From NCBI GenBank assembly GCA_030749075.1, contig JASMKR010000031.1, positions 70,089-134,088 on the forward strand: DNA of 64,000 nt. The letters run 5' to 3'. The notes under the pieces are model-generated. The model saw only the letters and a program-made list of their open reading frames with translations. It did not search any database and had not been told where the DNA came from. Positions 4,874 through 34,053 of the stretch are shown one piece after another; position 1 is the first letter of the stretch, and every line of letters starts with the position of its first letter. The DNA is from Candidatus Thalassarchaeaceae archaeon (GTDB taxonomy: Archaea > Thermoplasmatota > Poseidoniia > Poseidoniales > Thalassarchaeaceae). A program made the position numbers and the translations under genes.

Positions 4874-7816
4874 TCATCTAACTACGATGGCCTCGGAGTC
4901 CCTACTGTCGAGGACCACCTTCAGTGGCGAGTCTAGCCTCACGTGGCGTAGACCACCCTCTTCCGTCAAGGCCTCAATGTCGTCGAGCCATTCCCAATCG
5001 ACCAAATCGTCCTCGAGGATGGTCAGGTAGCCTATGTTGAAGGTCACGATGTTCTGGAAGAAGTGGGTGCCCTGAGACGGTTCCACGCGAATGTCCGCCA
5101 TAGGAACCTCGACGATGGTCTTGGCACCCATTATCTGGTTCCATTGTACGGGAATGCCCAACGATGGGTCAGATGACCCCCAACGCCCGGGTCCAATCAG
5201 AATATATGGCCGGTCCTCCGATCGGAGCCCGGCATCGATCTCCTCGATCACAGGTATGATATCCATCGTCTTCATCCTGTTCATACGCTTTGGGTGTACG
5301 TAAACGACATCTACAATGTGGTCGATGATGCCATTTCCCAGTGACTTGCTGCTGATGCAGACGGCCTTGTCCTTATTGACCTCGTCCAGGTCGATGTCGA
5401 TGTCAACTGATTCGTCCATCAGTGGTCTGACTTGTAAGATGGCGAACTTGCGGTTTCCATCTTCGGGATTGACTGTAAGGGCGAACTCCAGCTCTACGGG
5501 GCTGCCCAAGAAGTTCTCACACGTCGCGAGGACATGGTGCAGAATGCGTGGGAGGGGAAAACGCTGGTGCTTGAGGATTGGCGCGAAGGTGACTAGCCTA
5601 GGCCCTCCCTCGACCTTTATCGAGTCCACGATCCTGTCGTCAGCAGTGATGTAAGTGGAACCGACAAGAGAGAGTCTGCCATCCTCCTCTGCAGAGGATA
5701 ATCCTAGATGTAGCAGGTTCTCCTCCTCAGCAGCGAGCACCGGCCCCGATTCCCGAACCATCGGGATGGCGAAGAAGCGACTCTGTGAGGAACTGATGAT
5801 TGACTGGGTGCTGTAGAATTGGTGAACCCTCTTGGGCTGGCCCGGACTGAATCTCAGGCACTTTCCCCCTGAGGAGACCTGTCTGCCAAGACCGATGCAA
5901 ACGGCAGCCAGTCCATCCTCCATCTTGAGTGGTTCGACCGGGTAGTGATTTCGACTCCTTGCCGCCCCGGAGATATCGGGGTAGAAGCGACCCGAAACCT
6001 CCCTCCCGACAACCTCCTGAATCACAACTGCCATCTTCTCATCCTCGATGGTGTTGGCAGTTGCTGTAACGTATTTCTTGGCGCCCCTGTGGAATATCGA
6101 TGCGTATACCAGTTTTATCGCTTCAAGCAGCCGCCTGAGTCTGACCTCAAGGTCAGGGTGATCATTCGCGAGCATGTATGTTGCGTACACCCCGGCAAAG
6201 GGTTGGTGACTGGAATCCTCGAGCAAGCTCGATGATCGTACGGCCAACGGCCACTCTGAATTCTCCAGCATGGCCCTAATCTCACGGACCTCATCATCTC
6301 CGAATTGGCTACTCAGGAATGCACGGTCCACTTCATCATCGGATTCGTCATCATGAACGAATCTAACCAGTTCGTTCCTAGACACGAAGTCGTCGAAGAC
6401 CTCCGTAGCGATGACTACGGAGTTCGGGACAATGAAATCGATGTCTGGGAAGCCATCACCTAACCCCAACTCCCCCATCTTTGTGTAGAAGAACGCGAGA
6501 CCCCGCCCCTTTCCCCCTAAGCTCCCTCGCCCAATTCTCTGGAAACCAACCTCGTCTATGCCAGATTCGTGATCCCTGATCGTCCGCCTCCTAACATCGG
6601 AAATATGTGCCAGAACCGACTCAGCGATGTACTTCCTCACGCCTTCTAAGTCCTCAAAATCCTCCAAAGTCATCGGTCTGAGGGAGGCTGCGAGCGAGAA
6701 TTCGGTTCGGGCACGGAGCCAGTGGGAGAATTCGTTCCTCGTCGCATGGAACTCTATGGTCTCAATCGGTACCCCCTCCAACTCGACGACGAACTCCTCT
6801 AGATTCGACGCTCTGCCAATCTCCGTCTCATCAGGCATCCTGAAAATGAAATCGCCGAACCCCATCTCCTCAAGCATGAACTCCTCGATTCTCTGGTACA
6901 ATGCCGGATCTTCCTTGTGGAGGAAGCGGACCCCAAGTCCCTCGGCCGCTTCCTTCAGCTCGAGGTTCTTTGATTGCAGTAGTATTGGGAGGTACCTGTG
7001 ACCGCTTTGGGCATAACGAACCAATTCCAATCCCGCTGTGTCCCTCTCACCGTTTTGGTGGGGAAATCTACCATCGGTGAAGACTCCGATGATATTTCTT
7101 GAGTACTTGTCAATTATTTCCTTGGCCGAAGCCATGTCCGAGGCGAGTAGAATCTTCGCTCGGGCCCTCAGCCTCAGGAGCTTCTCATGGAGGTTACCAC
7201 CCTCTCCCATGAGTTTCGTTGTCTGCCGCACCAGTTGAGTGTAGAGGAGTGGTAGGTAAGCAGAGTAGAACCTCCTGCTGTCCTCGACGAGTAGAATGAC
7301 CTGCACGTCACCGTCCCTTACGTCGTTCTCTACGTTCCTTTCATCCTCAATCAACTTGCAAATCGAAAGTAGGATTCTGCTATCGCCCCCCCAAACAAAT
7401 ATCCTGTCAATACCATCGCCGGTTCTGAGAGTAGCCAGCTCCCTCGTGTTCTGACTCAGCATCACCACTGGCACATCCTCTTGATGGACTTTAACCAGCC
7501 TGGCAAAGGCGTAGGGATCCATGGTACCTACATTTGTCATAGTGATTACTAGATCGAAGTTGCGACTAGCGATGAGGCTCAGGGCATCATCGGCATCAGG
7601 GCTATGGATGATTCTAGGGGCCTGGGACAGGTTTAGCACCGAGTACTCCTCTTGCAGGATTTCTGCGAGATAGCCGGATTCTTCTAGGAGGTAGCGGTCG
7701 AACTGACTAGCCACGAGGAGGACCTCTGTGACTTTGAAGGGGGTCAGCCTCTCGAACCGATTCCAGTCCGTGACGCCCCCGTCCATAGGATCAGAGTCCG
7801 GTTGGCGGCATTGCAT
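4874..7816 (-). CDS. Two N-terminal CheY-like receiver domains (first degenerate) fused to a PEP-synthase/PPDK-type ATP-binding domain and a degenerate PEP-utilizing swivel domain
   Basis: The second receiver has VILLVEDS ... GVFTDGRFP ... LPILLQSK. The motifs GGKGRGLAFF (nt ~6497-6514), VPNSVVIATEVFDDF, VRSSSLLEDSSHQPFAGVYATY and LQVRPL match the PPDK_N/PEP synthase nucleotide-binding domain. The C-terminal GPGRWGSSDPSLGIPV (nt ~5165-5200) resembles the mobile domain GGRTSHAAI..GIP, but the His is replaced. Confidence 0.65.
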   Translation of the reverse strand: MQCRQPDSDPMDGGVTDWNRFERLTPFKVTEVLLVASQFDRYLLEESGYLAEILQEEYSVLNLSQAPRIIHSPDADDALSLIASRNFDLVITMTNVGTMDPYAFARLVKVHQEDVPVVMLSQNTRELATLRTGDGIDRIFVWGGDSRILLSICKLIEDERNVENDVRDGDVQVILLVEDSRRFYSAYLPLLYTQLVRQTTKLMGEGGNLHEKLLRLRARAKILLASDMASAKEIIDKYSRNIIGVFTDGRFPHQNGERDTAGLELVRYAQSGHRYLPILLQSKNLELKEAAEGLGVRFLHKEDPALYQRIEEFMLEEMGFGDFIFRMPDETEIGRASNLEEFVVELEGVPIETIEFHATRNEFSHWLRARTEFSLAASLRPMTLEDFEDLEGVRKYIAESVLAHISDVRRRTIRDHESGIDEVGFQRIGRGSLGGKGRGLAFFYTKMGELGLGDGFPDIDFIVPNSVVIATEVFDDFVSRNELVRFVHDDESDDEVDRAFLSSQFGDDEVREIRAMLENSEWPLAVRSSSLLEDSSHQPFAGVYATYMLANDHPDLEVRLRRLLEAIKLVYASIFHRGAKKYVTATANTIEDEKMAVVIQEVVGREVSGRFYPDISGAARSRNHYPVEPLKMEDGLAAVCIGLGRQVSSGGKCLRFSPGQPKRVHQFYSTQSIISSSQSRFFAIPMVRESGPVLAAEEENLLHLGLSSAEEDGRLSLVGSTYITADDRIVDSIKVEGGPRLVTFAPILKHQRFPLPRILHHVLATCENFLGSPVELEFALTVNPEDGNRKFAILQVRPLMDESVDIDIDLDEVNKDKAVCISSKSLGNGIIDHIVDVVYVHPKRMNRMKTMDIIPVIEEIDAGLRSEDRPYILIGPGRWGSSDPSLGIPVQWNQIMGAKTIVEVPMADIRVEPSQGTHFFQNIVTFNIGYLTILEDDLVDWEWLDDIEALTEEGGLRHVRLDSPLKVVLDSRDSEAIVVR

Positions 7817-8077: not shown

Positions 8078-8443
8078 TCAAGCGTTCGAATCGTCGTCAA
8101 ATCGAGAACGCAGATCATCCATGCGTCTCGCGAGAAGTTCCTCTACCGTGGCCCCCTGGATCATCTCCTTGCGAATGTACTCGCGAGCAGATTGTCGGAG
8201 CACGACATCTGCGGACTCGCCCACGAATTTGCAGAAGTCACTGAGTCTGATGGTTAGATCGGGACCAAGATCGACCTCGACCCTGCCTCCCTGTCCAGGC
8301 AACGGAGATGCCAGAAGCCTGCGCACTGCCTCTCTGATGACATCCGACCTATTCCTCATCCCATCGAATCCCACGAGCCTGTCCAGTTCCATCAGGTGAT
8401 CCTCGGGAATCCTCAGCGAGACCATGGGACTGACGCCGGCCAC
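8078..8443 (-). CDS. Ribbon-helix-helix (CopG/NikR-N-like) DNA-binding protein
   Basis: The N-terminal VSLRIPEDHLMELDRLVGFDGMRNRSDVIREAVRRLL is a classic RHH beta-strand plus two helices. The product is 121 aa, with a possible alternative start at Met7. It is divergent from the HD phosphohydrolase gene. Confidence 0.6.
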   Translation of the reverse strand: MAGVSPMVSLRIPEDHLMELDRLVGFDGMRNRSDVIREAVRRLLASPLPGQGGRVEVDLGPDLTIRLSDFCKFVGESADVVLRQSAREYIRKEMIQGATVEELLARRMDDLRSRFDDDSNA

Positions 8444-8516: not shown

Positions 8517-8607
8517 GATAGATAGTACACACAACTAGAACCTCCAGATACTACCCTCACAGAGCGATTCAAGGCACATGGGTCCCTGCAACGGCCACGG
8601 TGCTCTG

Positions 8608-9922
8608 ATGAAGGTCATCAACGATGCTATCCACGGTCAGTTCAAGCTCGATGGCGTTACCCAGGACCTCCTCGGCACACCCGAGCTAAACAAACTCAGT
8701 CACATCAAACAATTAGGGCTGGCCCACTTGGTTTTCCCCGGAGCGCATCACACTAGATTCGAGCATTCCCTAGGTGCTTCGCACGTTGCGGGTTTGATGG
8801 CGGAGTCTCTTGATCTGGGCGCACGGGATAGGGCGACCGTCGAGGTCGCAGCAATGCTCCATGACGTTGGTCATGGCCCGTATTCACACACGCTGGAGCA
8901 CATTCTTCAAGAGCGTGGGGGGATGGATCACATGTCGGTTACTGAGGGTATTATTCTAGGAGATTATGATGTGCTGTTGGAAGGTGAGGAAACCTCGGTC
9001 GAGAACAGGGAAGCAATTCCTGACATCCTGACTCGACATGGGCTCGATCCTGTTCAAATCGCATCTCTGATTCGTGGTCCAGACGCATCTGGGACTGAGA
9101 GGTCACTGCTCAATTGGACGGAGGGCAGGGAAGATTTCTCCGGTAGCGATAATACTCTGGCTCACCTAATCCACGGCCCCGTGGACTGCGACCAGTTGGA
9201 CTACCTGCTTAGGGACTCGCACTTCACAGGCGTGAAGCATGGAGTTGTGGACCATCACAGGCTCATCGAATGCCTTCAGAGCCAAGGTGGTGACATAGTC
9301 GTCGAGGAGGGTGGTCTTTCTTCGCTGGAGGGCATGCTAGCCGCTAGGGGACTGATGTACAGCTCCGTATACTTCCACAGGGTTACGAGAGTGACAGAGG
9401 TCATGTTGTCAAGGGCTGTCGAGAGAAGCAGTGAGGCCTTGCCCGACCCTATTGACCTACAGCGTAGGGTCGATGCAGAGATTTGGGGTGCACTAAATGA
9501 CGCGGGGGGGTTCTCTAGGGACATTATCAGGAGACTGAAGTACCGCAAGTTGCTCAAAATCTGCTTGAGCCGTCGCAGGGAAGATCTGACCGATGATCAA
9601 GCCGGTCGATTGGTGAAACTGGCCAATGACTCCAATTCGAGGCAGGCTATGGAAGACGAAATCGCCCATCGAGCAGGGGTCGAGCCGGGCTATGTGGCAA
9701 TCGACGTCCCTAGTGTGAAGCTCCTCATGGCCGAACCTAGGATGGCCCAAGTAGACATCAGGGTCGTCGGAAACGATGGGATGGCCCGGTGGCTGCGTGA
9801 ATTGACCCCCATGGCGGAAGCCCTCAGGAGGCGGCAGGTCAGCCAAGAAGCAGTATACGTGATGACGCTCCCCGGAACAGAGAAGAAAGTAGCCGAAATT
9901 GCAGAGCGCCACCTGTTCTCCT

Positions 9923-9924
<2 letters not shown>
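8608..9924 (+). CDS. HD-domain metal-dependent phosphohydrolase (dGTPase/SAMHD1-like superfamily)
   Basis: MKVINDAIHG..., H...RFEHSLG and LHDVGHGPYSH form the HD motif. There is a further D...D...LRD region. The 8578 ATG is in frame, but 8608 gives the canonical MK.I.D.IHG N-terminus. Confidence 0.7.
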
Positions 9925-11407
<1,483 letters not shown>

Positions 11408-15319: not shown

Positions 15320-18300
15320 ATGGTGGGTACGATGGAAACTGATAAAGAAGCACCCCAAGTCAACCTCCGGCTCCCCGGGATAGTCTCACCAATCGCCATC
15401 ACCGCGATGCTAACCATGCTCTTCCTAGGACTCTCCCAAATCGAGGGGCGTACAATTGACAACGACTACCTCACTAGCTCCCTGAAACTACCCCTAGCAG
15501 CCCTAGCCTCAGCATGCATTGGAATAATGTCCCCATGGCTGCGACTCAGCCCTACTGTAGGACTCCGTGTTTCAGTCCTGTCATTCGGACTGTTGGCAAT
15601 CGCTTCCATGGCGAACTTACTCGACCCTTTGATATTCGACAACTTGTTCGTCGCCACGTTCTTCCTAGTCGGTTCGGTAATTGGATTCCTAGTGGAGTCA
15701 AAGCGGTTTGAGGAGTCAAGCACCTTCCTTTCCGCCGTTGTGGGCCTGCACCTTGCCACGTCCTACGCTGCGGGGTTGGGGATTATCGACGGCGCTGCGA
15801 CTGCTCAGATGGTAAACGTCGAGAGAGAGGCAATCGGCTCTGCCTTCTTCGCGTTCTGGTTTGCGTCTATTGCACTCGGAATTGTTGTGATGATTGCCCT
15901 GAGGGGCACAATGGAGGAAGCGGGCTCCGGCCCGATGATGTCTGCGCTCCCCACACCGGCACAGAGCCTAGAGGCGACATCCTACGCTGCCCTCATCTTC
16001 GTAGTTCATTTGATCCCACTGGCGTGGATGGGGCAGATAGAGGACATAGAGAAATTCTCTGAGTCCAGCCATCTCGGTGTCGTCTGGGCCATCTTCACGA
16101 CCTTTGCCGTCCTATTGCACTCTTTCTTCCGGGCCGAGGGCTGGCACGTCCTCGGAGCGCTTCTAGCGATCAATTGGATACTGTACACTTTGGGCCATCT
16201 TCACGAGATTGGCAACGAGTTCCCATATCCCCTTGACGAAGGGGACTTGATTGGCTCGTTCTCATGGTTCTTCATGGGCTTCTGGCTAAACTTATTCGGA
16301 ATCATGGCAGCGTCTCGAGGGGTATTCGGAGACATCTCCCCTCGGAGAGAGCCAAGCGGCTTCAGAATCTGGTGGAAATCGAATTCCTACGGAATCTTAG
16401 TCAGCCTAGCCCTGGTAACCGCGCTGGTAGTCAGGACCGCATGGAACGTAATCCCGGCGATGAACGCGTCGGGAACAGGTCTCTGGGACATGACTGGGGG
16501 ATCTGACCCTTGGTACATGAAGAGGGTTGTCGACTACGTGATTGCTGAGAGGAGCCACCTCATCTTCGATCATGACAGGGCGTACCCACTCGGGGGCGTT
16601 AACCCTCGACCACCACTGTTCTCGTGGTCCCTCGCCCTAGGTGGTTTGGGACTCTCCTGGCTACTCGAGATTCCGGCTGAGGAGGCGGTTTGGTGGAGCA
16701 TGTCCGCCCTGCCAGCGATTTACGGTGCCCTCATCGTAATCCCCATCGCTGGAATTGCCACCCGGGTCCACAGCAAAACTGCCGGCATTTTCTCAGCATG
16801 GCTGATCGCACTGATGCCTGGCCACATTAGCAGGTCGACATTTGCCATGGCTGACCACGACTCATTCGCCATGCTTTTCCTAGCCACTGCATTCTACTTC
16901 TGGATTAGGGCACTGTCCGGGATTGAGCACAAGAGGCTGTTCGAATCTACCAGTCCGAACCCACTCTACCTGCTCGCCGGGATGAGGGAGAGTTGGAAGC
17001 AGAACCCCATGGTTATGGCAAACGCCACGATGTCCGGGATTGCTTTCACGTTGATGGCGCTGGGCTGGAAGGGGTTCGTCTACGGGCCGGGAATCCTATT
17101 CCTCGCTTATTCCGTACAGGTTGCCTTCAACATCTTCCGTGGCAGGGACAGCCTCCAGTTCACTGCTGCCGCGCTGCAGATGATGATGACAGCAATTCTT
17201 CTCCCACTGCCGTTCTACGGATGGCCTGGCCTGAATTTGGTCTTCGCGCCCAGTGGCATGCAACCGATGTTCTATATCATCGGTTTCACAATTGCCGTGG
17301 GCTGGGTGGCCAGTTCCTTCAGGGACAAGCCATGGCTACTCGTAATCATCAGCGGCACGATTCTATTCGGCACGATTCTAACTTCCCTCTACCTGCTCCA
17401 AGCCGCCGATTATTACAATGGGTGGGACATACTTTTCACAGGGGGGTTCTACTTCTCAAAGAACAAGATCTTCGGAACTATCGGAGAGGCTCAGGCTCCT
17501 AGTCGAGGGGTATTATTCGCCTCATATGGACCAGTGGTCGCCCTAATAGCAATTGGATGCGGCTTTGTTCTACTATGGAGGGGCAGTCGACGGAACAAGT
17601 CCGAGCTGACTCTACTGGGCTTATGGGTAATCATCGCGACATACATGGCATGGACCGCTGGAAGATTCATCATCAACGCAACTCCGGCTATGGCGGTTGT
17701 GGGCGGTGTCGGAATCTCCATGCTTTGGCGCAGTGCCAATTCATCTGAATTCGCCAAAGAATGGAGGAGGTCCGGCATTGGAACGCCCAGGGCTAGATTC
17801 AGGTCACTATGGCCTGCGACCAAGTCACGCCCCGGCATCCCAGCGATTCTGATCGTCCTCCTTCTTGTGGCCTCGCAGCATTCCACCTACGGAATTGACT
17901 CAGGCATCCCTAGGGGGGAGGAATCCGCCTATGAGGCCGACCTAGCCATCTACGACATCGCACCGGACATTCTGAGGGAGGACTTTTTCAATATCTTCTC
18001 TGTAATGAACAGCAAGGAGTACAATCCCGAAGTCTCAGGCCTTTGGTACATGGGCACGTTCGGCCCTAGCTTCAACAGCCAGGGCTGGAACCATGCCTAC
18101 GACTGGTTGTCCGAGCAGGACTCTGAGCAAGGTTTCAGCGAGCGTCCAGCCTTTGTCTCATGGTGGGACTACGGGTTCCAGGCTCTAGCCTCGGGCCAAC
18201 ATCCCACCGTTGCTGACAACTTCCAGTCGGGAATCCCAAATAGTGGGGGGATGCTCTTGTCGGCTGGACAAGAAGACACCCTGTCCATGTTCATCGTCAC

Positions 18301-21300
18301 TCTGGCACAGGGCGATAGAAAGTCCAACTCCGGCCAACTTGGCGATGATTTCATCGCATCTCTCAACGAGCACATGACCCTTCGACAGGTCGCGGAGTTC
18401 GAGAGCATACTCTCCAACAGCAACAGGGAATTCGTACTCAACAGATCAATGGGCGTCGTAGCGGTGTACAACGACGTCGAACTGCTATACGGAGAGCGTC
18501 TTGGTAGCGATGGCCTCCCTCAACCAGGAAAGGTCTGGATGGTAGTAGAAGATGGGATCCAGGTCTCCGAACCCACCTCGGACGAGTCAGAGGCCATGTC
18601 CCTGTTCAACGTGACCCGCGCCTCATCAACCAAGGTCAAAATCCGTGAGCCAGCGCACTACGACATTGGCGGATATAGGTACACCAAGGACCTGATAGAA
18701 GACTACTACGACATCTCCACTGGCCTTCACAGAAGCAATGCAAAGCTGGGGATGATGCGCGCCTTCCTTGTCACTGCCTTCGACATGGAAACCCTAGTTG
18801 ACATATACCACAGCATCACCTCTATTGAGTACGAGGTCTCCGACTACAACTCCCCACTGGGAAACACGGTGACCCGCAACAACGAGATTCGCTACTTCGC
18901 CGTCGATAACAGGCTCTTTCCGCTAGGTGGCTCTTACTATGAGGACCAATCCTACCATCGCGGACAGACAACAGGAATCTTCCATGCGCCAACTCATTTA
19001 TCGGGGCTAGATTTGGGGACCTACATCTCAACCATGTACCAAACCCAGAGGGGCGATGCCCTTACCGGAGCCAAGGAGATGACCCAAGCCGAATACGAAG
19101 CAGAGTACCGAGGCGACCTGATTAATCAGAGCGCGGGGGTGATCACGGACCCCTCCCAAGTCATCAGGATGACCGATATCGACTACCAGCACCAATCGGA
19201 GTTCTTCGAGACCATGGTCGCTAGGGTATACGTCGGATACGGGTCCTCAACGCTGGGGCTTCCGGGAGATGCCGAGACGCCTGCCGTCTGGTTCAATCCC
19301 CAGCAGACGAATATCATGGGCGCTCCAGGCTCTTCCTTGGAGTACGCCTTCGCTCTCCCCGGAGCAATGATGAATCACTTCGTCATCTCCAACTGGTACG
19401 ACGACAGCGAGTGCGAACTAAATGAGACAGGCGTCAAGATTAGCCAGTTATGCGGTACCATTTACGACTCAAACAGGGTCGTCAAGGTACTCAAGTACTA
19501 CAGCGGCGCAACCGTTGAGGGCACTGTCGAATTGGAAGGCATCGGCCCTGTTCCAAACGCTAGGATCCTGATTGAGAGGGATGCATTCAGCGGCGAGGAG
19601 GAACCCGATGAGAACGGCAGCGTGATTGATAGGGACGAGCGTACGTTTTGGATACCGATTGGCCATACCCAGGCCAACGAAAACGGGGAGTATTCCTTCA
19701 CCGTTCCCGCGGGCAAGATCCGAGTCTCCGCCTTCTCCGGAGAGCCAGACCTTGAGGCTGCTCGTCTTTCGATAACCCCCTCCGTGGCTTCCGAACTCGG
19801 CAACTCGATGTACGAACTGTTCTCCGAGCACAACGAACAGAGGAACGTCAATCCGATTACGGGAATCCTAGGCAACGTCTCGGGCTCGACCTGGCTCTCC
19901 GAGAACATCGTCAACGTCTCTGGGTCTGATGGCCACAGCAATGGCCAATCCCGGATAGAGGCCTCGATCTCAGTCCAGCCCTCCACTGCGGTCGGGGTCT
20001 TGTTGTGGTCTGGCGGCCTTGACTTCGCAGGGGACCCGATCCTGGGCTCTAAGGTGGTGCTGACTCCCTCCTCCGACGAGATTACTATTGAACCATATTC
20101 AGCACCCACCTCAAATGGTACGGTTGAGGGCGAATCTCTGGAGTTCAACGGCATTGGTCAAGCCACCTTCACAGGCGAGGGCACTGTCATCTCAGAGGGC
20201 ATTGTGACCGTCACCGATTTCACGGGGACACACACTCAGACCATCTTGGACAATCACAGTGTTACCGGGGAGGGCCAGTTCTCGGGCAAGGGCACGCTGT
20301 CAGGAACCCTTGTTGACATCACAGCCATTTCCTGCCCCAACGATGAAATTCCTGACGGGGCCGTCGTCTGTTTGCTTGAAAATGGTAAATTCCTTGTGAA
20401 TGGTACCGTAGATGCCTCGGGCAGGTTCACCGCCGACGGAACGGTCCTGTTCTCAAGAACCCTCAACCAGTCTACATTCGTTGGATCGGGTGAGTTCGAG
20501 ACGGACGCTACGCAGTCACTGCCTGCCTATGGGACCATCAATGGTACGGGAATGTTCTCTGGCACTGGGATTTTCAGTGGACCAATGGTCCAACCCGGCT
20601 CCTTCCACTTCTACGATGCCCTCCCGGGCGAGTACATCCCCTCTATCGAATTCGATGATGGCACGACGGTGGAATTGGGGAGCAACTTCCTAATCGGGCT
20701 GAATTCCTTGCAGGCCCCAGTGCAGCTTACTATCTCTGGAGGGGCCATAAAGGGCAACTTGATTGACCAATCTGGTGAACCCCTGTACGGCCAGATCTCC
20801 ATCTTCCCGGCCAACGACACTGCCGAGAACGCCACTACGGAGTGTTCCCAGACCGTATCCTCTCCATGCATGGTCATTCCTGATGACGACGGTGCATTCC
20901 AGATTGGTCCAATCGTCCCGGGGAACTACATAGCCGAGGTCGATCTCGACGATGATGGTTTCCCGGAGGTTTCCCAGGCTTACTCATTCCTCCCCGAGGA
21001 GGATTTCGTAGCCAATTTCCCCTACCCGATCCCAGAAATGTCGGACCTCTTTTTCACTCTCTTGGATGGGGACTCCCCACTCTCCGACCTAGAGGTCCTC
21101 CTGCGACCCGAAAATGGGTCGTTAGCTCCAGTCCTAGCGATATACGACTCGGATTTAGATTCCTACAGGGCCGAGCTCCCCCAAGGCACATGGATACTCA
21201 ACCATACTTTGTCAGAGGACAAGCAGCTCTGGCAACTTATCGAGATTGGCAAGGAGGATGTGTCCGACTCCTTCAGCTTCCAGATCAGCCAGATGGTGAA

Positions 21301-24300
21301 CGGCACAGTGCGATACTCCCAAGACGACAAGCAGGATATCGGAATCATAGTGCCAGCCGCGAGTCTCACTGAGGTAGTTTTCCAATGGGATGGATTCACT
21401 CTTTCTACCACAACGGACGCAGACGGCAACTTCAGCGTGATTCTCCCTGTGGATGCGGTTGTGGATGCCACCGTCGAAATTCTCATGGGCGTCGATGGAT
21501 TCTCTTCCAATGGTACACGCTTCAAAGTGACCCGGGGAATGGACGATGTTTCTCTGAACATTGTTTCGGGTGCCATGGCAACCGGCTCTGTGAGCCTGAA
21601 CCGACTTGGGAACCACTACACTGATGCAATCAAGGGCTGGGAAGCCGTCCATGTCGTCGCCACCAATACTGACGGGTCCACAAACGGGGTTTGGAGGGAT
21701 GAGGCCGATTCCAACGGCTACTTCGAGATGATACTACCTCTGGGTAACTGGACATTCGTTCTTGACCCCGGTCAAATGGGCTCTAGCACGGAGACTAGGG
21801 AAATCAACTCATCCACCGTAATAGATCTAGAGCTTCTAGTCTACCCGGAAGGGAACAGCACGGTCGTAATCGACCTCTTTATCGATCACGATAGAGACAA
21901 CAACGCCTCCAATGGGACGGCGGTGACATATCCTTTCGCCGTCCAGTCGTTGGAGGCCAACGGCGCTGGATACGAAGTGGTCGCAGATGGCGATGAATGG
22001 ATTTCCTCCGGAAGGGCCGAGATTTCTCTGGAACCAGGCAGGTACAGGGTTGTCGTAGAAAGGGCAAATGCCTCGGCAGACGAGCCCTTCGACACTCTCT
22101 ATGACCTCAACGAGGTGTTCCAAGTAGGCATGACTCCATCGGCTGTCGAGAGGTCTGTGGGATTCGAGCCCCTGTGGCTCGTAAACATCACCTTCAGCAA
22201 CGAGAGCGGCAGTCTCCTAGTCGACCACGAGGTCGTTTTCGTCGATAGCGAAAACGGATGGATCCAAACTTTCCTCACCGACGAGGAAGGCAGAGTAGTG
22301 GAATATCTGTCAGAAGGTGACTGGATAGTTATCGTCGACGAGTTCGAGACCAACTCAGACGTTTTCGAAGGACTGCGTCGCCTCATTAGCGTGTCCCAAG
22401 CCAGTGCGGGGGCCCGGTTATATTTCCAGACCTCCGAGCTGGCCGAAGTCTCGATTGCCCTCTTCGAGGATTTTTCTGGTTCCAGTCTCAACCAAATGGA
22501 ACTCAGGTTCACCTCCCAGGAAGGGTTGGGTTCATTCACTGCGCAGACCTCAGGCTTCTTGGAGACCATAAAGATCAGACCGACACCGGGAATGTGGAAC
22601 GTAGAACTTAACCAGTCTGACAACCAAGGAGTGAGATGGGTCATCGATAATTCCTCCCTAGTCGAATCAGGAGTCTCCGTCGGCGTCGAACACATTGTCA
22701 ATCTGACTGTTCGGAGGCTCGTAGAGATGAGCGGCAAGGTCTACTGGGACCTCGATGACGACGGGCTGCCAGGATTCGGAGAGGGTCTAGTCAACGTCTC
22801 GGTGAGCATTACTTCCAACGATACCACCAACCATTCTTTGACCACTGATGATGGTGGCGATTGGGCAATCTACCTCCCAGCCGGCAGTTCATGGAGCGTC
22901 TCGGTAGAAAAGCCAGGATTCGCCAACGAATCAGTTTCCGTCACCCTAGGATCTTCCCGCCATGTCGAGAATATCGTGATTTCCGCTGGGTCAGTCGAGG
23001 TTTCCGGCACCGTCTCGTACATTTCGGATGAATGGATATTTGATGATGATTGGGAAATCGTGCTGATTCCCGCGCATGGGATTTCTAGGGAGAGGGTCGT
23101 TCCAGACAAGGTTGGCAACGAAGTGGATGGGTGGACAGGCGAGTGGGTTGCCTCGGTGGAACCCGGGCGATGGATTGCCTACGTCACGGTCGATTCCCTA
23201 GAGGGGGAGTCCTACCTAATCGCTGTGGATATGCTCGATGCCGATACCGATGGTGGTTCGGTAGATTCAGATCTCTCGATTGGCGGCAAACTCTTCCTTG
23301 ACACCGAGTGGCTGGACTATGACGGTGGACTGCACTCCCTTTCAGAGATCGATGACTACGATCTAGTGATTTCAATCGGAATGGGGATGGAATGGTCCGA
23401 GCAACTGGGTGAGGATGGCACCCTAGAGATGCTACTGCCCACCGGGAGAATCGACGCATCGAGTGACTTCGAGATCGAGCAACGGGCTAGGAATATGTCA
23501 TACTCGGGCGGTCAAGGCGTTACAATGAAGGCCGGCCAGGACAGTCCACTAAAGACACTGAGCTTGGAACGGGTTTCGAAGCAGAACATCGAAATTTCAA
23601 CGATCGGGGAAAGTACCGTCACATTGGGACTGGATCCCGAATGCGAAGTCGAGCTACTACCTCCACCACATGACTGCGAATACACACCCGTCGAATTCTC
23701 ATTGCGCATCGACTACTTAGGACACAGTTCCTTCGACTCATACGACGTTGTGGGCACCGTCCTCGGGACTGATGGCATCCTTTGGCTTGTGCAGTTTGAG
23801 AACGACTCCGGGGGCTGGAACAGCACCGCCTCATTCGAGATGGGAATCGATAACGCTGAGACGATTGACAGCTTAGTTGTCAGGGTGAGTCCAGCAAACA
23901 AGAGCCAGGCCCACCATTTCGGACTTGGACACACTATTCTGATGAAGTTCAAGACTGCCGAGGGTTATTCCACCGAGCACAGTCTGACCGTGAAGGTCCC
24001 CAGATTCTCCGGATTCGAAGTAACCGAGGAATTCGTCGACACAGTCTACTTCAGTTCAGGGGATAAATTTCTGGAAATAGAGATTCCATTTCAAAATCTG
24101 GGGAACGCCGACGACCTACTGACTTTCGACTATCAATCTACTGAACACTGGAACGTGGGCATGCCAACGCTGCAACCAATCTCGCCATTCTCGGAGGGAA
24201 TTACGACTATGTCACTCTCCTACGCAGTCGAGGAGGAACATCTTCCCGAGTACGCGATTGACTTCACTGTGTCCGATGCAGAAAACAACTCCTACGACTA

Positions 24301-24826
24301 CCATATCACGCTCCTAGGGGATTCGCCAGTCCTCTCCATTCACGGAAGCACAATCCAACTCCAAGGTGGTGGAAACCCCGTCGTGGGCCAGAAGTTAACT
24401 TACGTGGTAGAGGTGGTAAATGAGGCGCATGTCAGCGCAGAGGGCGTCACTTTACGGGCAACGCTGTGTAACGACATCAAATGCGAATCAACTGCCGGGG
24501 TGAACTCGACTGCAGTAAGCGACATCCCGGAACAGGGAAGCTCGTTGTTCTATGTCCCCATGGATTACACTAACTTCACCACCCCTGCCAAGTACTTCAT
24601 TATCTTCGAGATTATCCCTCCCGGATTCAACGAGGGGGACGTTCTGGTGGCTTGCGTCGCAGAGCAGGCGGAAGGGGCATCGGCGTGTGTTATGGAGGCA
24701 CAACTCTGGCCTGAGTCCGAGGAAGAAGTGCTATCTTGGATTACCTATCTATTGCTGCTAATGCTCGCATTGGCACTATGGTCACTGACCCGTCGGACCG
24801 GAAGAAGGCCGGGAGCCCCCTTCTGA
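15320..24826 (+). CDS. aglB: Giant (3,168-aa) membrane protein: N-terminal ~330-aa polytopic domain + AglB/STT3 oligosaccharyltransferase core + ~1,900-aa extracellular beta-sandwich extension + C-terminal TM anchor
   Basis: It is an uninterrupted 9,507-nt ORF. FDHDRAYP is the DxD motif of the STT3 first external loop (nt 16565-16579). SWWDYGFQ is the WWDYG catalytic motif (nt 18161-18175). There are multiple TM helices before WWDYG. After ~aa 1,300 there are repeated Ig/CarboxypepD_reg-like modules rich in N-x-S/T. The C-terminus is WITYLLLLMLALALWSLTRRTGRR. Confidence 0.8.
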   Translation: MVGTMETDKEAPQVNLRLPGIVSPIAITAMLTMLFLGLSQIEGRTIDNDYLTSSLKLPLAALASACIGIMSPWLRLSPTVGLRVSVLSFGLLAIASMANLLDPLIFDNLFVATFFLVGSVIGFLVESKRFEESSTFLSAVVGLHLATSYAAGLGIIDGAATAQMVNVEREAIGSAFFAFWFASIALGIVVMIALRGTMEEAGSGPMMSALPTPAQSLEATSYAALIFVVHLIPLAWMGQIEDIEKFSESSHLGVVWAIFTTFAVLLHSFFRAEGWHVLGALLAINWILYTLGHLHEIGNEFPYPLDEGDLIGSFSWFFMGFWLNLFGIMAASRGVFGDISPRREPSGFRIWWKSNSYGILVSLALVTALVVRTAWNVIPAMNASGTGLWDMTGGSDPWYMKRVVDYVIAERSHLIFDHDRAYPLGGVNPRPPLFSWSLALGGLGLSWLLEIPAEEAVWWSMSALPAIYGALIVIPIAGIATRVHSKTAGIFSAWLIALMPGHISRSTFAMADHDSFAMLFLATAFYFWIRALSGIEHKRLFESTSPNPLYLLAGMRESWKQNPMVMANATMSGIAFTLMALGWKGFVYGPGILFLAYSVQVAFNIFRGRDSLQFTAAALQMMMTAILLPLPFYGWPGLNLVFAPSGMQPMFYIIGFTIAVGWVASSFRDKPWLLVIISGTILFGTILTSLYLLQAADYYNGWDILFTGGFYFSKNKIFGTIGEAQAPSRGVLFASYGPVVALIAIGCGFVLLWRGSRRNKSELTLLGLWVIIATYMAWTAGRFIINATPAMAVVGGVGISMLWRSANSSEFAKEWRRSGIGTPRARFRSLWPATKSRPGIPAILIVLLLVASQHSTYGIDSGIPRGEESAYEADLAIYDIAPDILREDFFNIFSVMNSKEYNPEVSGLWYMGTFGPSFNSQGWNHAYDWLSEQDSEQGFSERPAFVSWWDYGFQALASGQHPTVADNFQSGIPNSGGMLLSAGQEDTLSMFIVTLAQGDRKSNSGQLGDDFIASLNEHMTLRQVAEFESILSNSNREFVLNRSMGVVAVYNDVELLYGERLGSDGLPQPGKVWMVVEDGIQVSEPTSDESEAMSLFNVTRASSTKVKIREPAHYDIGGYRYTKDLIEDYYDISTGLHRSNAKLGMMRAFLVTAFDMETLVDIYHSITSIEYEVSDYNSPLGNTVTRNNEIRYFAVDNRLFPLGGSYYEDQSYHRGQTTGIFHAPTHLSGLDLGTYISTMYQTQRGDALTGAKEMTQAEYEAEYRGDLINQSAGVITDPSQVIRMTDIDYQHQSEFFETMVARVYVGYGSSTLGLPGDAETPAVWFNPQQTNIMGAPGSSLEYAFALPGAMMNHFVISNWYDDSECELNETGVKISQLCGTIYDSNRVVKVLKYYSGATVEGTVELEGIGPVPNARILIERDAFSGEEEPDENGSVIDRDERTFWIPIGHTQANENGEYSFTVPAGKIRVSAFSGEPDLEAARLSITPSVASELGNSMYELFSEHNEQRNVNPITGILGNVSGSTWLSENIVNVSGSDGHSNGQSRIEASISVQPSTAVGVLLWSGGLDFAGDPILGSKVVLTPSSDEITIEPYSAPTSNGTVEGESLEFNGIGQATFTGEGTVISEGIVTVTDFTGTHTQTILDNHSVTGEGQFSGKGTLSGTLVDITAISCPNDEIPDGAVVCLLENGKFLVNGTVDASGRFTADGTVLFSRTLNQSTFVGSGEFETDATQSLPAYGTINGTGMFSGTGIFSGPMVQPGSFHFYDALPGEYIPSIEFDDGTTVELGSNFLIGLNSLQAPVQLTISGGAIKGNLIDQSGEPLYGQISIFPANDTAENATTECSQTVSSPCMVIPDDDGAFQIGPIVPGNYIAEVDLDDDGFPEVSQAYSFLPEEDFVANFPYPIPEMSDLFFTLLDGDSPLSDLEVLLRPENGSLAPVLAIYDSDLDSYRAELPQGTWILNHTLSEDKQLWQLIEIGKEDVSDSFSFQISQMVNGTVRYSQDDKQDIGIIVPAASLTEVVFQWDGFTLSTTTDADGNFSVILPVDAVVDATVEILMGVDGFSSNGTRFKVTRGMDDVSLNIVSGAMATGSVSLNRLGNHYTDAIKGWEAVHVVATNTDGSTNGVWRDEADSNGYFEMILPLGNWTFVLDPGQMGSSTETREINSSTVIDLELLVYPEGNSTVVIDLFIDHDRDNNASNGTAVTYPFAVQSLEANGAGYEVVADGDEWISSGRAEISLEPGRYRVVVERANASADEPFDTLYDLNEVFQVGMTPSAVERSVGFEPLWLVNITFSNESGSLLVDHEVVFVDSENGWIQTFLTDEEGRVVEYLSEGDWIVIVDEFETNSDVFEGLRRLISVSQASAGARLYFQTSELAEVSIALFEDFSGSSLNQMELRFTSQEGLGSFTAQTSGFLETIKIRPTPGMWNVELNQSDNQGVRWVIDNSSLVESGVSVGVEHIVNLTVRRLVEMSGKVYWDLDDDGLPGFGEGLVNVSVSITSNDTTNHSLTTDDGGDWAIYLPAGSSWSVSVEKPGFANESVSVTLGSSRHVENIVISAGSVEVSGTVSYISDEWIFDDDWEIVLIPAHGISRERVVPDKVGNEVDGWTGEWVASVEPGRWIAYVTVDSLEGESYLIAVDMLDADTDGGSVDSDLSIGGKLFLDTEWLDYDGGLHSLSEIDDYDLVISIGMGMEWSEQLGEDGTLEMLLPTGRIDASSDFEIEQRARNMSYSGGQGVTMKAGQDSPLKTLSLERVSKQNIEISTIGESTVTLGLDPECEVELLPPPHDCEYTPVEFSLRIDYLGHSSFDSYDVVGTVLGTDGILWLVQFENDSGGWNSTASFEMGIDNAETIDSLVVRVSPANKSQAHHFGLGHTILMKFKTAEGYSTEHSLTVKVPRFSGFEVTEEFVDTVYFSSGDKFLEIEIPFQNLGNADDLLTFDYQSTEHWNVGMPTLQPISPFSEGITTMSLSYAVEEEHLPEYAIDFTVSDAENNSYDYHITLLGDSPVLSIHGSTIQLQGGGNPVVGQKLTYVVEVVNEAHVSAEGVTLRATLCNDIKCESTAGVNSTAVSDIPEQGSSLFYVPMDYTNFTTPAKYFIIFEIIPPGFNEGDVLVACVAEQAEGASACVMEAQLWPESEEEVLSWITYLLLLMLALALWSLTRRTGRRPGAPF

Positions 24827-24867: not shown

Positions 24868-26106
24868 GTGATGCAGGACATAGAACACCTCGAACTGATG
24901 CCCGAACCAGATGAGCCAAGCCTGCTTACAACGGTCGACAGCGATGCCCCCGGATATCCCGGTAAGTCCTATGGGGTCTCGGATGAGGAGGCTAGGGAGA
25001 TGCGCTGGCCCGCTGGCCCGATCATGGAGGTGCTATGGCCGTGGGGGGCGATTGTGTTTTCCTTGACAATCGTTTTCCTATTGCTGTCTTGGAACTTGAT
25101 ATCTCCCTTCTTAGGACACGTTCTACCCGATTCTGAGTGGGCATACGAGGACACCGGAATCAGGGAACTGCAGAGTTCAGGAAGATTGGGGAGCGGAGTA
25201 AGCGTGTGCATTGTGGATACGGGAATCGACATATCGCACCCTGACCTCTCCAATGTCCACCTAGCAGGTTTCAGGGACTTCTACGGCGACGATCATGATA
25301 GTGTCAGGGATATCGGGAACGAGGGTCACGGTACGCTAATGGCCGGGCTCCTCGTTGCAAACGGCACCTTTGTGGGCGCCGCTCCCGAGGTCTCCCTCTC
25401 AATCGCAATCGCTCTGGGGCCTACCGGAAAGTCGACCGATGAGCGAATGGTTTCCCAGGCAATCCGTTGGTGCCGAATCTCTCAGCAGGCCGATATCATC
25501 TCACTAAGCCTAGGCAGCGAGCCTGGTTCGGGGATGGGCTTCGAATCCGATACCGTTGGGGCCGTTAAGGAAGCCCTAGAGGAAGGGGTCTTCGTCGTCG
25601 CTGCTGCGGGGAATACGAACTCGATCACTGGTGACTCTGACGTTTCGACCCCTGCAAGCATCGAGGGTGTCATCGCGGTTGGGGCACATAGTAGGAACGA
25701 GGCTGTCTGGAAGGATAGCGCTATTGGAGCTGCAACCGACCCATATTCCGGCGAGAACCGAACGTTTCCAAATCAGAAGCCCGAGATCTCTGCCCCCGGC
25801 GTTCTCCTATGGTCTTGCGTTTCCAGCGAAAACGATCCTCCATACGCTTACTCGACTGGAACCAGCGACTCCACGGTCTTGGTCACCGGTGCTCTAGCAC
25901 TCATTTTGGAGGAACACCGACAGATTATCGCCGGGCAGAACGACAGGATTGACCCCGAAGAGATAGCCCTGGTCAAGGTCGCTTTGGCCAAGTCAGCCCA
26001 AAAGACCCCCTCGCAACAGGGTTCTCATGACCCTAAGATTGGTTATGGCCTACTAGATGCTAAGGCATGGTCCGACCAAGTGGCACTGGAGTTCAATTCT
26101 ATTTGA
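24868..26106 (+). CDS. Subtilisin-like serine protease (peptidase S8) with N-terminal TM/signal anchor
   Basis: The Asp motif is VCIVDTGID, the His motif is HGTLMAGL and the Ser region is YSTGTSDSTVLVTGALALI. An N-terminal hydrophobic helix WGAIVFSLTIVFLLL is present. Confidence 0.75.
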   Translation: MMQDIEHLELMPEPDEPSLLTTVDSDAPGYPGKSYGVSDEEAREMRWPAGPIMEVLWPWGAIVFSLTIVFLLLSWNLISPFLGHVLPDSEWAYEDTGIRELQSSGRLGSGVSVCIVDTGIDISHPDLSNVHLAGFRDFYGDDHDSVRDIGNEGHGTLMAGLLVANGTFVGAAPEVSLSIAIALGPTGKSTDERMVSQAIRWCRISQQADIISLSLGSEPGSGMGFESDTVGAVKEALEEGVFVVAAAGNTNSITGDSDVSTPASIEGVIAVGAHSRNEAVWKDSAIGAATDPYSGENRTFPNQKPEISAPGVLLWSCVSSENDPPYAYSTGTSDSTVLVTGALALILEEHRQIIAGQNDRIDPEEIALVKVALAKSAQKTPSQQGSHDPKIGYGLLDAKAWSDQVALEFNSI

Positions 26107-26148: not shown

Positions 26149-29100
26149 ATGGGGCCCGGAGCCATGGCGCGCAGTGGAAAGGCCGGTTCCATTGCCCTCG
26201 CTGCTCTCTTCCTGACCAGCGTCCTACTAGCACTAGTGCTACCGGCCAATCCTGTAAGAGCGTCCAACGAGACCACCTCCGGTACCATCACAGGTACGGA
26301 GACTTGGGCTGGAACGCACGTCCTAACTGGAGATGTGACCGTCGCCCCAGGTGCTAAGCTTATCATCCAAGCGGGAGCCACGATTACCTTTCCCAATGGG
26401 ACGTATCTCGACGTGCGTGGTAGCCTATGCGCGGGGGTAGCCTCTTGCGGCAGCAGCAGCAATGCCGACCCTTCGATGAAGATCACCCTCAGGTGGGAAG
26501 AGCCCCTCAACGCCAGTGCCATTGGGGAGTGCTATGGCATGTCCGAAGGCAATCAGGAAATCTGGATTGACGACCCCTCGTGCAACGAGGGGTTGCTGAT
26601 GAGAAGCAGCATTGACCTATCGGAGACGGGAATGAGGTACGTCACTTTCGACGGTCCTTGGGGAGTCCCATACTATGTCACTGCGGTCAGCGAGTTCCGT
26701 TACGCGGCCCTAGTCCTAGATGGTGCTAGCCCGACCCTGACCAACCTCGAGTTCATTGACGTCAACTCTAGCAGCGTCCTAACCACGGACCTCGCTCAGC
26801 CCACTTTCAACGGTGGCACATTCGTAGTAGGCAATGATGCCAGCAGAAGCATTGTGGGCCCCGCCCTGCAGATTTACTCCTCGGGGTCCTCAATCACTCC
26901 CTTCACCCTCAGCGATATCACACTCTCCAGTACCAACAACGGCTGTGGGAACCGGGACCGCGGCCGCGCCGCCATATGGGCGGAGAAGTCATTCATAGAG
27001 ATCAACAATGCCGAAATCACCGATGGCGACTTCGGCTTCAGCCTCAGGACCTCTGCGGGCAGCGTCACCAACTCCACTGCAAGCGTCAACTGCAATGGCA
27101 TCGACATCAACGGCAAGAAGTCCGTAGGCTCTGTCTACTATGACTTCGAAATTTCGAACAACGTCATCACGACCGTCCAAGGCAGTGGAATCACGCTTTA
27201 CAGCGGTGCTCTGGCCACGTTGACCAACAACGACATCGAAGGCGCCTCTCAAGCCTCCGGCATCACCGTTTATTCCAGCACTGCGGCCCTCCACAACAAT
27301 GAGATTGGCCCGATTGGGGGGTACAACGGACTCTGGCTGCGCGGCTCCTTCGACGTTGAAGCGGAGAATAACACCATCTTCGATACCGGAAGGGAGCCAA
27401 TCGTAGCGGGAAGGTACACCCGGTCTGAGTACTCGGCATCCCGTATCTTCCTAGCTAACAACACCATCTCAACGAAGGGGACCGGCGCGTGCAGCAGCAA
27501 CACATACTGGGCCGGCGACTTCACATGCCCGGCCATTCATGCCTTTGTTACCGGTGTGACGATGTACGACAACGTCGTCAACGTCGATTCCGAAGGCACC
27601 GCCGATGGCATCAGAGCCATCGGCTCGCTGTTGGACATCCAGAGGAACGTCTTCAACGTCCCCAAGTCAGGCGCCATTGTCAAGAACTTCGACAGCGGTT
27701 ACTCCGAAGCCGATCAATACGGCACCCTCGGCTTCTTCTCACAGAACACGTGGAACGGTGTCGAAACGACGTACAACGTCACCAAGAGCTCAATCACTGT
27801 TCAGTCCGAGTACATTCCAAGCCCCCCTTCCGGAGAGTTCCCCGTTCTCCTTGATTGGCCAGACCAGGAGGCATGGCCCGCAAACGGCTTCCAAGGCTCC
27901 ATCATACCCACTCCGGTCAAGAACTGCGCAAACTGCGACAACATGACCCCGCACAACTTCCCCCTCGCGATAAACATGGACAACAACTCCACCGTTTTCA
28001 CCTTCGCCAACCTGTCAAATCTGGACCTCTCCAAGGTCAAGATAGAAACCCAACCCACACATTTTGCGGTTCAGGTCAGCAGGGCTGAGTTGGTCAGGTT
28101 CCAGACGCTGATTAAGGGTGAGAGGGTCGGCGATGCCTTGCTCATTGTCGAGGACGCCTTAGGGAACGACCTCTACTCCATCAAAACCCATTCCGATGGA
28201 TTCACCCCGTGGATTTCTCTTCCCTCCAATTTCCACCTTGACTTCAGGGGGCTTGGTGGTGGTGATAATCCCGATGGCTTCGCGGATGACGAGTACGAGG
28301 ACTCTTGCTCCGATGGTATCGACAACGATGGCGATCTTACCACCGATACAAACGACAACGATTGCAACTATTCTGCAGGTACAAGGGAGATGTCCCTCTA
28401 CAGGTACACCGCCTATAGGTTCGGTTTCGGTTACTACCGCGGAGAGTTCACTCTCGCAGACAGTTCCTACCAAGAGACCGTCAGCCTCGAAAACCTCGCT
28501 CCGACGGTTACTGTGACCCAAGACAATGATCACTCCTATCGCAGGATTGTCAACATCACAGGCAGTGCTCACGATGGCCAACTGGCGAACAGTTACGCTA
28601 CCGACCAATTGGCTCAGTGGGACCAGCGTGGTTACGTCCACTCTATCCAGATCAAGGATCCGTTTACTAACAGCTGGGAGGATGCCGGTAATGCAATAGA
28701 CACCGGTGGAGCCGGGGAGGGGCATGTCACTAGGTTCAACCGGCCTTTCAGCTCCTGGTACTATGCCCTCGACATGAGTAGCATTGCTGGCGAGGGCGAT
28801 TATACCTTCGAGTTTCGTGCCTTCGATGGAATCGATTACAGCCCAACAGTCTCCAAGACCTTCAAGCTCAACACACAACCTCCTACGGTTTTCGTAACCT
28901 CGCCAAGCTCGTATTCATCGCATGACGGGGGAACGGTGAATTTCATCGGAACAGCTCAGGATCCATATGGCTGCCCCTCGGAGTGTAACAAGGACGTCGG
29001 ACTGATATATTTCCAGATCGAGGGCCCGAACTTCCAAGTAACGACTCCAGTCCAATCCAACGATGATGGCAGTTGGGAGTGGGAATGGGACTTCAGCGGC

Positions 29101-33876: not shown

Positions 33877-34053
33877 AATGTCATTCTCTCATCCACAGCA
33901 CCCTTTGAACCAATCCATTATCTTGCCTCAATCACACGCTATTCCAAGACCATGGTGGTTAGCCGCCACCCCATTCTAGCCATCTATGTCCGAACGGCGC
34001 TCCATCACCATGATAAATCACTCAAGTAGGGAAAATGGTACCGAGTGGGTAAC

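Follow-up and report, generated by a model that had tools for sequence, protein, structure and literature searches.

A response regulator family with a dikinase-type ATP-grasp domain, a candidate phosphotransfer domain and a frequent genomic link to glutamate dehydrogenase

The subject of this work is a predicted multidomain protein encoded on the minus strand (4874..7816) of a 64,000-nucleotide stretch (hereinafter, the window) of contig JASMKR010000031.1 from Candidatus Thalassarchaeaceae archaeon (positions 70,089 to 134,088 of the forward strand). The protein, hereinafter the regulator, joins two receiver domains (REC1 and REC2) to a catalytic core that consists of an ATP-grasp domain of the type found in phosphoenolpyruvate (PEP)-utilising dikinases and a C-terminal domain with an invariant histidine, His908; across diverse bacteria and Marine Group II (MGII) archaea, its gene is frequently located next to that for glutamate dehydrogenase (GDH). 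With modest confidence, we lean towards an orphan response regulator with an ATP-dependent phosphotransferase output that would act on a putative substrate at the GDH node. GDH is the hinge of carbon and nitrogen metabolism, and MGII archaea are abundant heterotrophs of the ocean. That at least eight bacterial phyla, as well as MGII, have kept the regulator next to gdh suggests that this node is controlled post-translationally or by signalling, a matter of relevance to nitrogen metabolism, two-component signalling and the study of marine archaea.

Domain organization and the C-terminal histidine

The open reading frame (ORF), with its stop codon at 4874-4876, is listed with 980 aa. Because the homologs (965-977 aa) begin with MDGG..., translation probably begins at the ATG at 7786 and yields a protein of 970 aa; residues are numbered accordingly throughout, and the coordinates of the key residues were confirmed by translation. 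The ORF is real, with more than 7,700 database matches, including a 970-aa copy at 99% identity, and the closest homologs come from metagenome genomes of MGII (Poseidoniales/Thalassarchaeaceae).

An earlier note on this DNA, made from the sequence without database searches, had proposed the order pseudo-receiver, receiver and PPDK_N domain. This order is borne out by Pfam searches, alignment to CheY, AlphaFold modelling and Foldseek comparison, and all the motifs cited in that note (GVFTDGRFP, GGKGRGLAFF, VRSSSLLEDSSHQPFAGVYATY, LQVRPL and GPGRWGSSDPSLGIPV) are present in the translation. In Pfam, the protein matches PPDK_N with E=6e-32 and, in the first receiver, Response_reg only weakly; among 49 homologs, PPDK_N is detected in all 49, Response_reg in 38 (best E=3e-11) and DUF5752 in 31 (best E=1e-7). 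The full-length AlphaFold model, built from the 49-sequence alignment (pLDDT 83), supplies the structure prediction that the note had called for and consists of two (beta-alpha)5 domains with the receiver fold, a small hairpin-plus-helices domain, the ATP-grasp domain and a C-terminal alpha/beta domain. Compared by Foldseek with the PDB, the model retrieves rifampin phosphotransferase at the top (E=6e-12), then the tandem receivers of PleD (E=1e-8) and then other response regulators; the receiver folds are also matched by the receivers of PorX, CheB and OmpR.

The PPDK_N-type ATP-grasp domain (residues 422-792, or 432-802 in the 980-aa ORF; 5411..6523, minus strand) aligns with the N-domain of Escherichia coli PpsA at an hhalign probability of 95%, with K426 and R517 aligned to PpsA, and its profile retrieves rifampin phosphotransferase from the PDB with E=5e-8 (PDB 5hv1 being the Foldseek counterpart). 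Its invariant residues are K426 (in GGKGRG), R517 (VRSSS), E765 and E767 (VELEF) and Q785 and R787 (LQVRP). They correspond to the GGK, VRSS, E.E and LQ.RP motifs of PpsA, which bind nucleotide and Mg in the PPDK enzyme class, and, because the ATP/Mg residues of the PpsA type are kept, the domain looks catalytic rather than vestigial.

Beyond this domain, the likeness to PEP-utilising dikinases ends. The protein extends for only 178 residues past the ATP-grasp domain, and Pfam detects neither the PF00391 swivel domain nor the PF02896 TIM barrel in it at E<=1, nor either domain in 44 C-terminal domains of the family at E<=10. The NCBIfam models of PEP synthase reach no more than 15-49 bits, where the cutoffs are 598-1063, and align over residues ~460-612 only. 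Lacking both the swivel domain and the PEP/pyruvate TIM barrel, the regulator is not a PEP synthase, as the earlier note had suspected. Of the comparisons which that note had suggested, the one with PF01326 gave the PPDK_N match described above, whereas the one with the rifampin phosphotransferase and PEP synthase families succeeded for the ATP-grasp domain and failed at full length: the rifampin phosphotransferase model (NF041857) reaches 28.6 bits, over residues 493-610 only, against a cutoff of 999, which places the protein outside that family. The prodigiosin ligases PigC/RedH (NF052631/NF052632) match only in their N-terminal ATP-grasp part, with 55.9 and 47.5 bits against cutoffs of 1300 and 1350, and membership in these families is likewise not indicated.

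The 166-residue C-terminal domain (residues 805-970; 4877..5374, minus strand) is modelled with high confidence (AlphaFold pLDDT 94, pTM 0.90) and is matched neither in Pfam, nor by any PDB sequence, nor significantly by Foldseek. His908 (codon 5063-5065) lies in the motif S-Q-G-T-H-F-F-Q-N (5051..5077, minus strand) and is invariant in the 49 close homologs, in 44 diverse, mostly bacterial fragments and in 150 of 150 cluster representatives that share no more than 50% identity; the GTHFFQ motif is also visible in the three displayed alignments of PPDK_N-nucleotidyltransferase paralogs, which are distant (E~1e-26). In the domain model, this histidine opens the helix 103-111, behind a strand and a loop of small residues; in the full-length model, the loop that precedes it is the segment of lowest confidence, which may reflect mobility. 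The other invariant polar residues of the domain are R868, D873, E893, S904, N912 and Y920. Judging by these conservation patterns, His908 is a candidate phospho-carrier or catalytic histidine, and the domain as a whole, confidently modelled and unmatched in databases, is a candidate new phosphotransfer or catalytic domain.

The earlier note had located the mobile-domain histidine at GPGRWGSSDPSLGIPV, about 30 residues upstream of H908 in the same domain, and had read it as changed to Ser/Gly. The stretch in question is the GPGRWGSSD loop (5168..5194, minus strand), in which G, R, W, G and D show little or no variation and which may be a phosphate- or substrate-binding loop. It shows no homology to the GGRTSHAAI..GIP segment of PF00391 detectable by HMM, hhalign or Foldseek, and there is therefore no 'His column' to read. 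The note's own reservation, that the histidine might be conserved at a shifted position, is closely matched by the invariant H908, and the catalytic histidine that seemed to be lost is probably present after all.

The phospho-histidines of PPDK and Enzyme I likewise begin a helix, and the model follows a succession of secondary-structure elements similar to that of the dikinase His domains; a very divergent His-carrier domain is thus plausible. By eye, the domain can be written as a stretched PF00391 swivel (LGNG..VYV for G.G.v.vi, LLIG for ILV, TIVE for aiVT, GTHFFQNIV for TSHAAIVA and LLDGR.G.A.V for v.vDG..G.V). This pairing finds no support in Pfam (E<=10), in the search of the C-terminal profile against all PDB sequences (chance matches only), in hhalign with either E. 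coli PpsA or a PpsA/PtsI swivel profile of 17 sequences from the viral-contig loci L083-L104 as the counterpart (probability 0.1%) or in Foldseek against the PDB, where the best matches (E 0.02) are unrelated chitinase-like chains at a TM of about 0.3, and it stays an unproven lead. A motif search for bona fide swivel proteins across the 1.17 Mb of fetched loci found none.

The two receivers differ sharply in their active sites. REC1 (residues 18-135; 7382..7735, minus strand) is recognised by the weak Response_reg match, by hhalign with E. coli CheY and by its receiver fold; the phospho-acceptor D57 of CheY aligns to Met83 (codon 7538-7540), the acidic pair is missing ('VAS' in its place) and Trp132 occupies the position of the conserved Lys. 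REC1, which has neither the phospho-acceptor Asp nor the conserved Lys, is by its sequence a pseudo-receiver, as had been proposed. REC2 (residues 160-300; 6887..7309, minus strand), identified by alignment to CheY, invariance and a PleD-like tandem fold, has the (beta-alpha)5 fold and the full set of PF00072 catalytic residues: E168/D169 (7280-7285), the predicted phospho-acceptor D238 (7073-7075), S272 (6971-6973) and K291 (6914-6916), none of which varies among the 49 homologs. D238 corresponds to D57 and S272 to T87 of CheY; K291 is placed by pattern only. The second receiver is thus intact, in agreement with the earlier note, and the case that the note had set against its own reading, receivers wholly without the Asp/Lys/Thr triad, does not apply. 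Between REC2 and the ATP-grasp domain lies a beta-hairpin with helices (residues 305-405; 6572..6874, minus strand), weakly similar to DUF5752, with the motifs FGDFIF and HA.RN.FS.W. Because it is absent from the REC-less paralogs described below, this middle domain belongs to the regulatory N-terminal half; the literature searched contained nothing on DUF5752.

Glutamate dehydrogenase linkage and spread of the family

Eighty loci were fetched from species-representative genomes; these are the best matches to one query and not a random sample of the family. Clustering of the neighbours within +-8 kb of the regulator gene identified one dominant partner, a protein of ~450 aa, in 42 of the 74 gene-bearing loci. 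This partner is GDH (Pfam E about 1e-83 to 1e-94), specifically the GdhA/PRK14030-type enzyme, above the curated NCBIfam cutoffs. In 27 loci, no gene separates GDH from the regulator, and in 25 of these both are on one strand, with GDH either upstream or downstream and gaps of 5-260 bp. In locus L063, from Gillisia limnaea DSM 15749, for example, the homolog (5511-8570) neighbours a GDH gene (8831-10168). The linkage is seen in Acidobacteriota, Planctomycetota, Desulfobacterota, Bacteroidota, Ignavibacteriales, Fibrobacteraceae, Krumholzibacteriia, Eisenbacteria and MGII archaea. The frequency of 57% compares with a chance expectation of well under 1% by our own estimate, which assumes one or two gdh genes per genome and a 16-kb window around the regulator. 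The GDH link, frequent though not universal, is a strong coupling across phyla; it shows selection for proximity to gdh and suggests a connection to nitrogen/carbon metabolism.

Several loci show tighter or more elaborate arrangements. GDH and regulator genes alternate in arrays in L049 and L071, where the copies are 58-67% identical for the regulators and 58-77% identical for GDH, a divergence that implies an old co-duplication of the two genes. In two flavobacteria (L031 and L074), the regulator lies between two GDH isozymes, and an independently annotated contig has the gene order saccharopine dehydrogenase, aldehyde dehydrogenase, regulator, GDH, aminotransferase. In four Bacteroidales loci without GDH (L042 8694-10562(+), L050, L033 and L054), the adjoining gene encodes aspartate ammonia-lyase (TIGR00839, above cutoff). 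The aspartate ammonia-lyase of these loci carries an N-terminal cyclic-nucleotide-binding domain, an unusual fusion. Three Acidobacteriota loci (L006 12613-14948(+), L014 and L019) contain, a few genes away, a conserved pair that consists of a DHODB_Fe-S_bind protein and a GltD-like Fer4_20/Pyr_redox_2 protein and resembles the glutamate-synthase small subunit or NfnAB.

The family is large: a search of 1.84 billion representatives with the C-terminal profile (E<=1e-3) yields 2,439 clusters at 50% identity. An architecture of ~990 aa, colinear with the archaeal protein, is present in 74 of the 80 loci (positions about 6-972 of the 49-member profile), and the protein encoded in the window is itself a typical member, colinear over its full length with the REC-REC-DUF5752-PPDK_N-'GRWG/GTHFFQ' organization and with both the GxGRWG and the SxGxHFFxN motifs. 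The bacterial loci of this set belong to Acidobacteriota, Bacteroidota, Desulfobacterota, Planctomycetota, Ignavibacteriales, Fibrobacteraceae, Eisenbacteria, Calditrichia, Zixibacteria and others, and the archaeal ones to MGII and one other Thermoplasmata archaeon. Some Acidobacteria also encode receiver-less forms of 580 aa with the same motifs, and forms of ~1,100-1,280 aa in which the ATP-grasp and C-terminal domains are followed by a Pol-beta-type nucleotidyltransferase (NTP_transf_2). Because the paralogs without receivers keep both the ATP-grasp domain and the GRWG/GTHFFQ domain, these two constitute the conserved core, and the receivers are, by this sequence comparison, one of several regulatory add-ons. 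In Acidobacteria and unclassified bacteria, up to three paralogs (the REC-REC form, the 580-aa core-only form and the nucleotidyltransferase-fused form) occur side by side (L059 9434-13285(-) and 12628-14382(-); L060 9395-12727(-) and 12579-14357(-); L037 9884-11626(+) and 11619-14804(+)). The nucleotidyltransferase-fused paralog recalls nitrogen regulators of the GlnE/GlnD type.

The public names of family members are misleading. They include 'histidine kinase' and 'phosphoenolpyruvate synthase' (P0066, P0107, P0187, P0215 and P0232), neither of which fits the domain content, as well as 'PEP/pyruvate-binding domain-containing protein', and would distort metabolic reconstructions. The same domain combination has been catalogued in Heimdallarchaeota metagenome contigs and assigned to the bacterial type (Galperin et al., 2018; PMC5847659). 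That catalogue lists the architecture only, with no function, C-terminal domain, invariant histidine or GDH linkage, and leaves Marine Group II unmentioned; beyond it, the literature searched contained nothing on the function or the GDH link. The family is thus catalogued and uncharacterised, and what is new here is the unassigned C-terminal domain and the link to GDH.

A possible mechanism and its alternatives

In the mechanism that we favour, the degenerate REC1 and the competent REC2 precede a catalytic core formed by the ATP-grasp domain and the C-terminal domain. Asp238 would be phosphorylated by an unlinked kinase or by a small phosphodonor and would thereby gate the core; the ATP-grasp domain would move a phosphoryl group from ATP to His908, which is predicted to sit on a loop-to-helix junction as in the dikinase phospho-histidines; and from His908 it would pass to a target, most likely GDH itself, at the glutamate/2-oxoglutarate/ammonia node. 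The constant association of the invariant His-bearing C-terminal domain with a dikinase-type ATP-grasp domain argues for this scheme. Consistent with an unlinked kinase or a small phosphodonor, the conserved neighbourhood does not include histidine kinases: a histidine kinase or a similar protein adjoins the regulator in at most 1-2 of 80 related loci. The earlier note's statement that the window encodes no histidine kinase agrees with the Pfam search for HisKA/HATPase domains in 30 window ORFs, a set that does not cover the giant ORFs 15320..24826, 26149..30486 and 34045..39771, and with a motif scan of all long ORFs, both of which returned none.

Several observations weigh against the scheme. 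Neither sequence, profile nor Foldseek comparison detected a relationship between the C-terminal domain and the phospho-histidine swivel domains, and His908 could be a substrate or metal ligand instead. GDH is missing within 8 kb in 32 of the 74 loci and also in a marine MGII-like clade (L109-L111; protein P0100, 46% identical), and the GDH of the window lies on the other strand, 2.2 kb from the regulator and beyond two intervening genes. Besides, gene adjacency constitutes a functional link and does not by itself make GDH the substrate.

The phosphotransferase scheme has a stronger form, which we put forward tentatively and consider doubtful as it stands: a signal-gated covalent regulator of GdhA-type GDH (and of aspartate ammonia-lyase in some Bacteroidales) that would phosphorylate the dehydrogenase via a new phospho-histidine domain, loaded by the ATP-grasp domain and marked by S-x-G-T-H-F-F-x-N. 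If so, the family would act as a switch for ammonia flux, assimilatory as well as catabolic, in MGII archaea and across many bacterial phyla. Reversible inactivation of GDH in vivo was reportedly described in Bacteroides fragilis in the 1980s, and the family would then be a molecular candidate for it.

The alternatives mostly turn on what His908 does. In a direct, ADP-forming ATP-grasp kinase or ligase, the C-terminal domain would serve as a lobe for catalysis or for substrate binding, with His908 as a general base or a ligand and no phospho-histidine, and the substrate would be a small molecule of glutamate/2-oxoglutarate metabolism or a protein. ATP-grasp enzymes generally activate carboxylates, the C-terminal domain has no detectable kinship with swivel domains and the invariant R868, D873, E893, S904, H908, N912 and Y920 resemble a binding site; however, the nearest relatives of the ATP-grasp domain by both sequence and fold, rifampin phosphotransferase and PEP synthase, are all His-relay dikinases, and the order of secondary-structure elements, with the histidine at a helix N-terminus after the small residues of G-T-H, appears to resemble the dikinase His domains, so that we rate this possibility as unlikely. 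A self-contained phosphorelay, in which the ATP-grasp domain and His908 would replace the histidine kinase and phosphorylate the protein's own Asp238 (ATP to His to Asp), with the receivers as the output towards GDH or some other partner, seems to us quite improbable. In its favour, the five catalytic residues of REC2 are all retained although neighbouring kinases are exceedingly rare and the window searches described above returned none; orphan regulators, however, are common in bacteria with many kinases, and the 580-aa REC-less and nucleotidyltransferase-fused paralogs keep the His and GRWG motifs, so that the role of the histidine needs no receiver. The scarcity of two-component systems in Thermoplasmata, with 3 kinases in 11 genomes (PMC5847659), speaks for such a relay.

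Two further possibilities concern the ATP-grasp domain. It could bind nucleotide only, making the protein a non-catalytic sensor of ATP or energy charge that regulates its partners allosterically. The activity of family members is indeed a prediction, but neither the residues that bind phosphate and Mg nor the C-terminal motifs vary from phylum to phylum, a pattern typical of catalysis and not of mere binding, and we give this explanation little credence. The PPDK_N domain and the database names would also suit a divergent but ordinary metabolic PEP synthase or pyruvate phosphate dikinase; here the probability is close to nil, given that the domain content (neither PF02896 nor PF00391) excludes it, the NCBIfam scores cited above are a small fraction of the cutoffs and no separate TIM-barrel partner is conserved nearby.

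The window locus and comparison with known systems

In the window, the regulator is preceded on the same strand by a gene for a ribbon-helix-helix (RHH; CopG-type) protein (8078..8443, minus strand), 261-291 bp upstream. Co-oriented ORFs of 129-144 aa, matched by position and size, occupy the same place in the MGII loci L001, L002 and L004; the RHH gene and the regulator probably belong to one transcription unit, and the RHH protein may be a DNA-binding partner or an operon regulator. The divergent unit starts with a dGTPase-like HD + HD_assoc_2 gene (8578..9924, plus strand), which separates the regulator from GDH in MGII loci only, and ends with a GdhA-type NADP glutamate dehydrogenase (10013..11407, plus strand), identified by Pfam and by NCBIfam NF006929 (733 bits against a cutoff of 536). 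The RHH-regulator unit (8443 down to 4874) and the HD-GDH unit (8578 to 11407) are separated by a 134-bp divergent intergenic region, and this layout recurs in the MGII loci L001-L004. The GDH is of the bacterial NADP-GdhA type, compared with only 209 bits for archaeal GdhA, and is 62-66% identical to the bacterial GDHs that neighbour the regulator family. These identities are compatible with joint acquisition of GDH and regulator by lateral transfer, which may have occurred, and are no proof of it. The HD, DinG/XPD-like and RHH neighbours brought to mind a defence system; the regulator has no PADLOC match, these neighbours are MGII-specific and the partner shared across phyla is GDH, and this reading was rejected.

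The loci of the MGII-like clade L109-L111 have a different set of neighbours, with succinyl-CoA synthetase, two squalene/phytoene synthase genes and an ABC-F ATPase. The window also encodes CDP-archaeol synthase, archaeal-type ribosomal protein S15 and an XPD-like helicase, and an ORF at 40700..41689 (plus strand) joins a pyroglutamyl peptidase (Peptidase_C15) to a C-terminal NUDIX domain, an unusual fusion. Four ORFs on the plus strand are very large: 15320..24826 (3168 aa), 26149..30486 (1445 aa), 34045..39771 (1908 aa) and 58088..62884 (1598 aa), the last of which carries Peptidase_S8 and CARDB domains. With a further S8 subtilase at 24868..26106, several secreted-type subtilases are encoded in the window.

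Among characterised proteins, the top match of the ATP-grasp domain in both structure and sequence is rifampin phosphotransferase (RPH) of Listeria monocytogenes (PDB 5hv1/5fbs), likewise a non-metabolic enzyme built on a PPDK_N module and a C-terminal domain with an essential histidine. RPH, however, has a large rifampin-binding domain between the ATP-grasp domain and a canonical PF00391 swivel His domain, and no receivers, and its C-terminal domain is unrelated to the one described here by every test run. PEP synthase and PPDK (E. coli PpsA; PDB 2ols, 1ggo) share the GGK, VRSS..ED, E.E and LQ.RP residues, whereas the regulator family lacks their GGxTSH swivel domain and TIM barrel and has two receivers and a DUF5752-like domain instead.

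In its N-terminal half, the regulator resembles PleD (PDB 1w25, 2v0n), in which two successive receiver folds, one of them catalytically dead, also precede an enzymatic output. PleD is phosphorylated on its first receiver and uses the second as an adaptor; in the regulator, the order of the receivers is reversed and the output is ATP-grasp, not GGDEF. At the level of gene organization, the arrangement recalls PpsR beside ppsA, where the gene of an ATP-using phosphotransferase is kept by that of one central-metabolism enzyme, and AceK in aceBAK, where a regulatory kinase gene stands beside its metabolic target. Both are functional analogies only: the folds of PpsR and AceK are unrelated to that of the regulator, for which modification of the target is conjectural.

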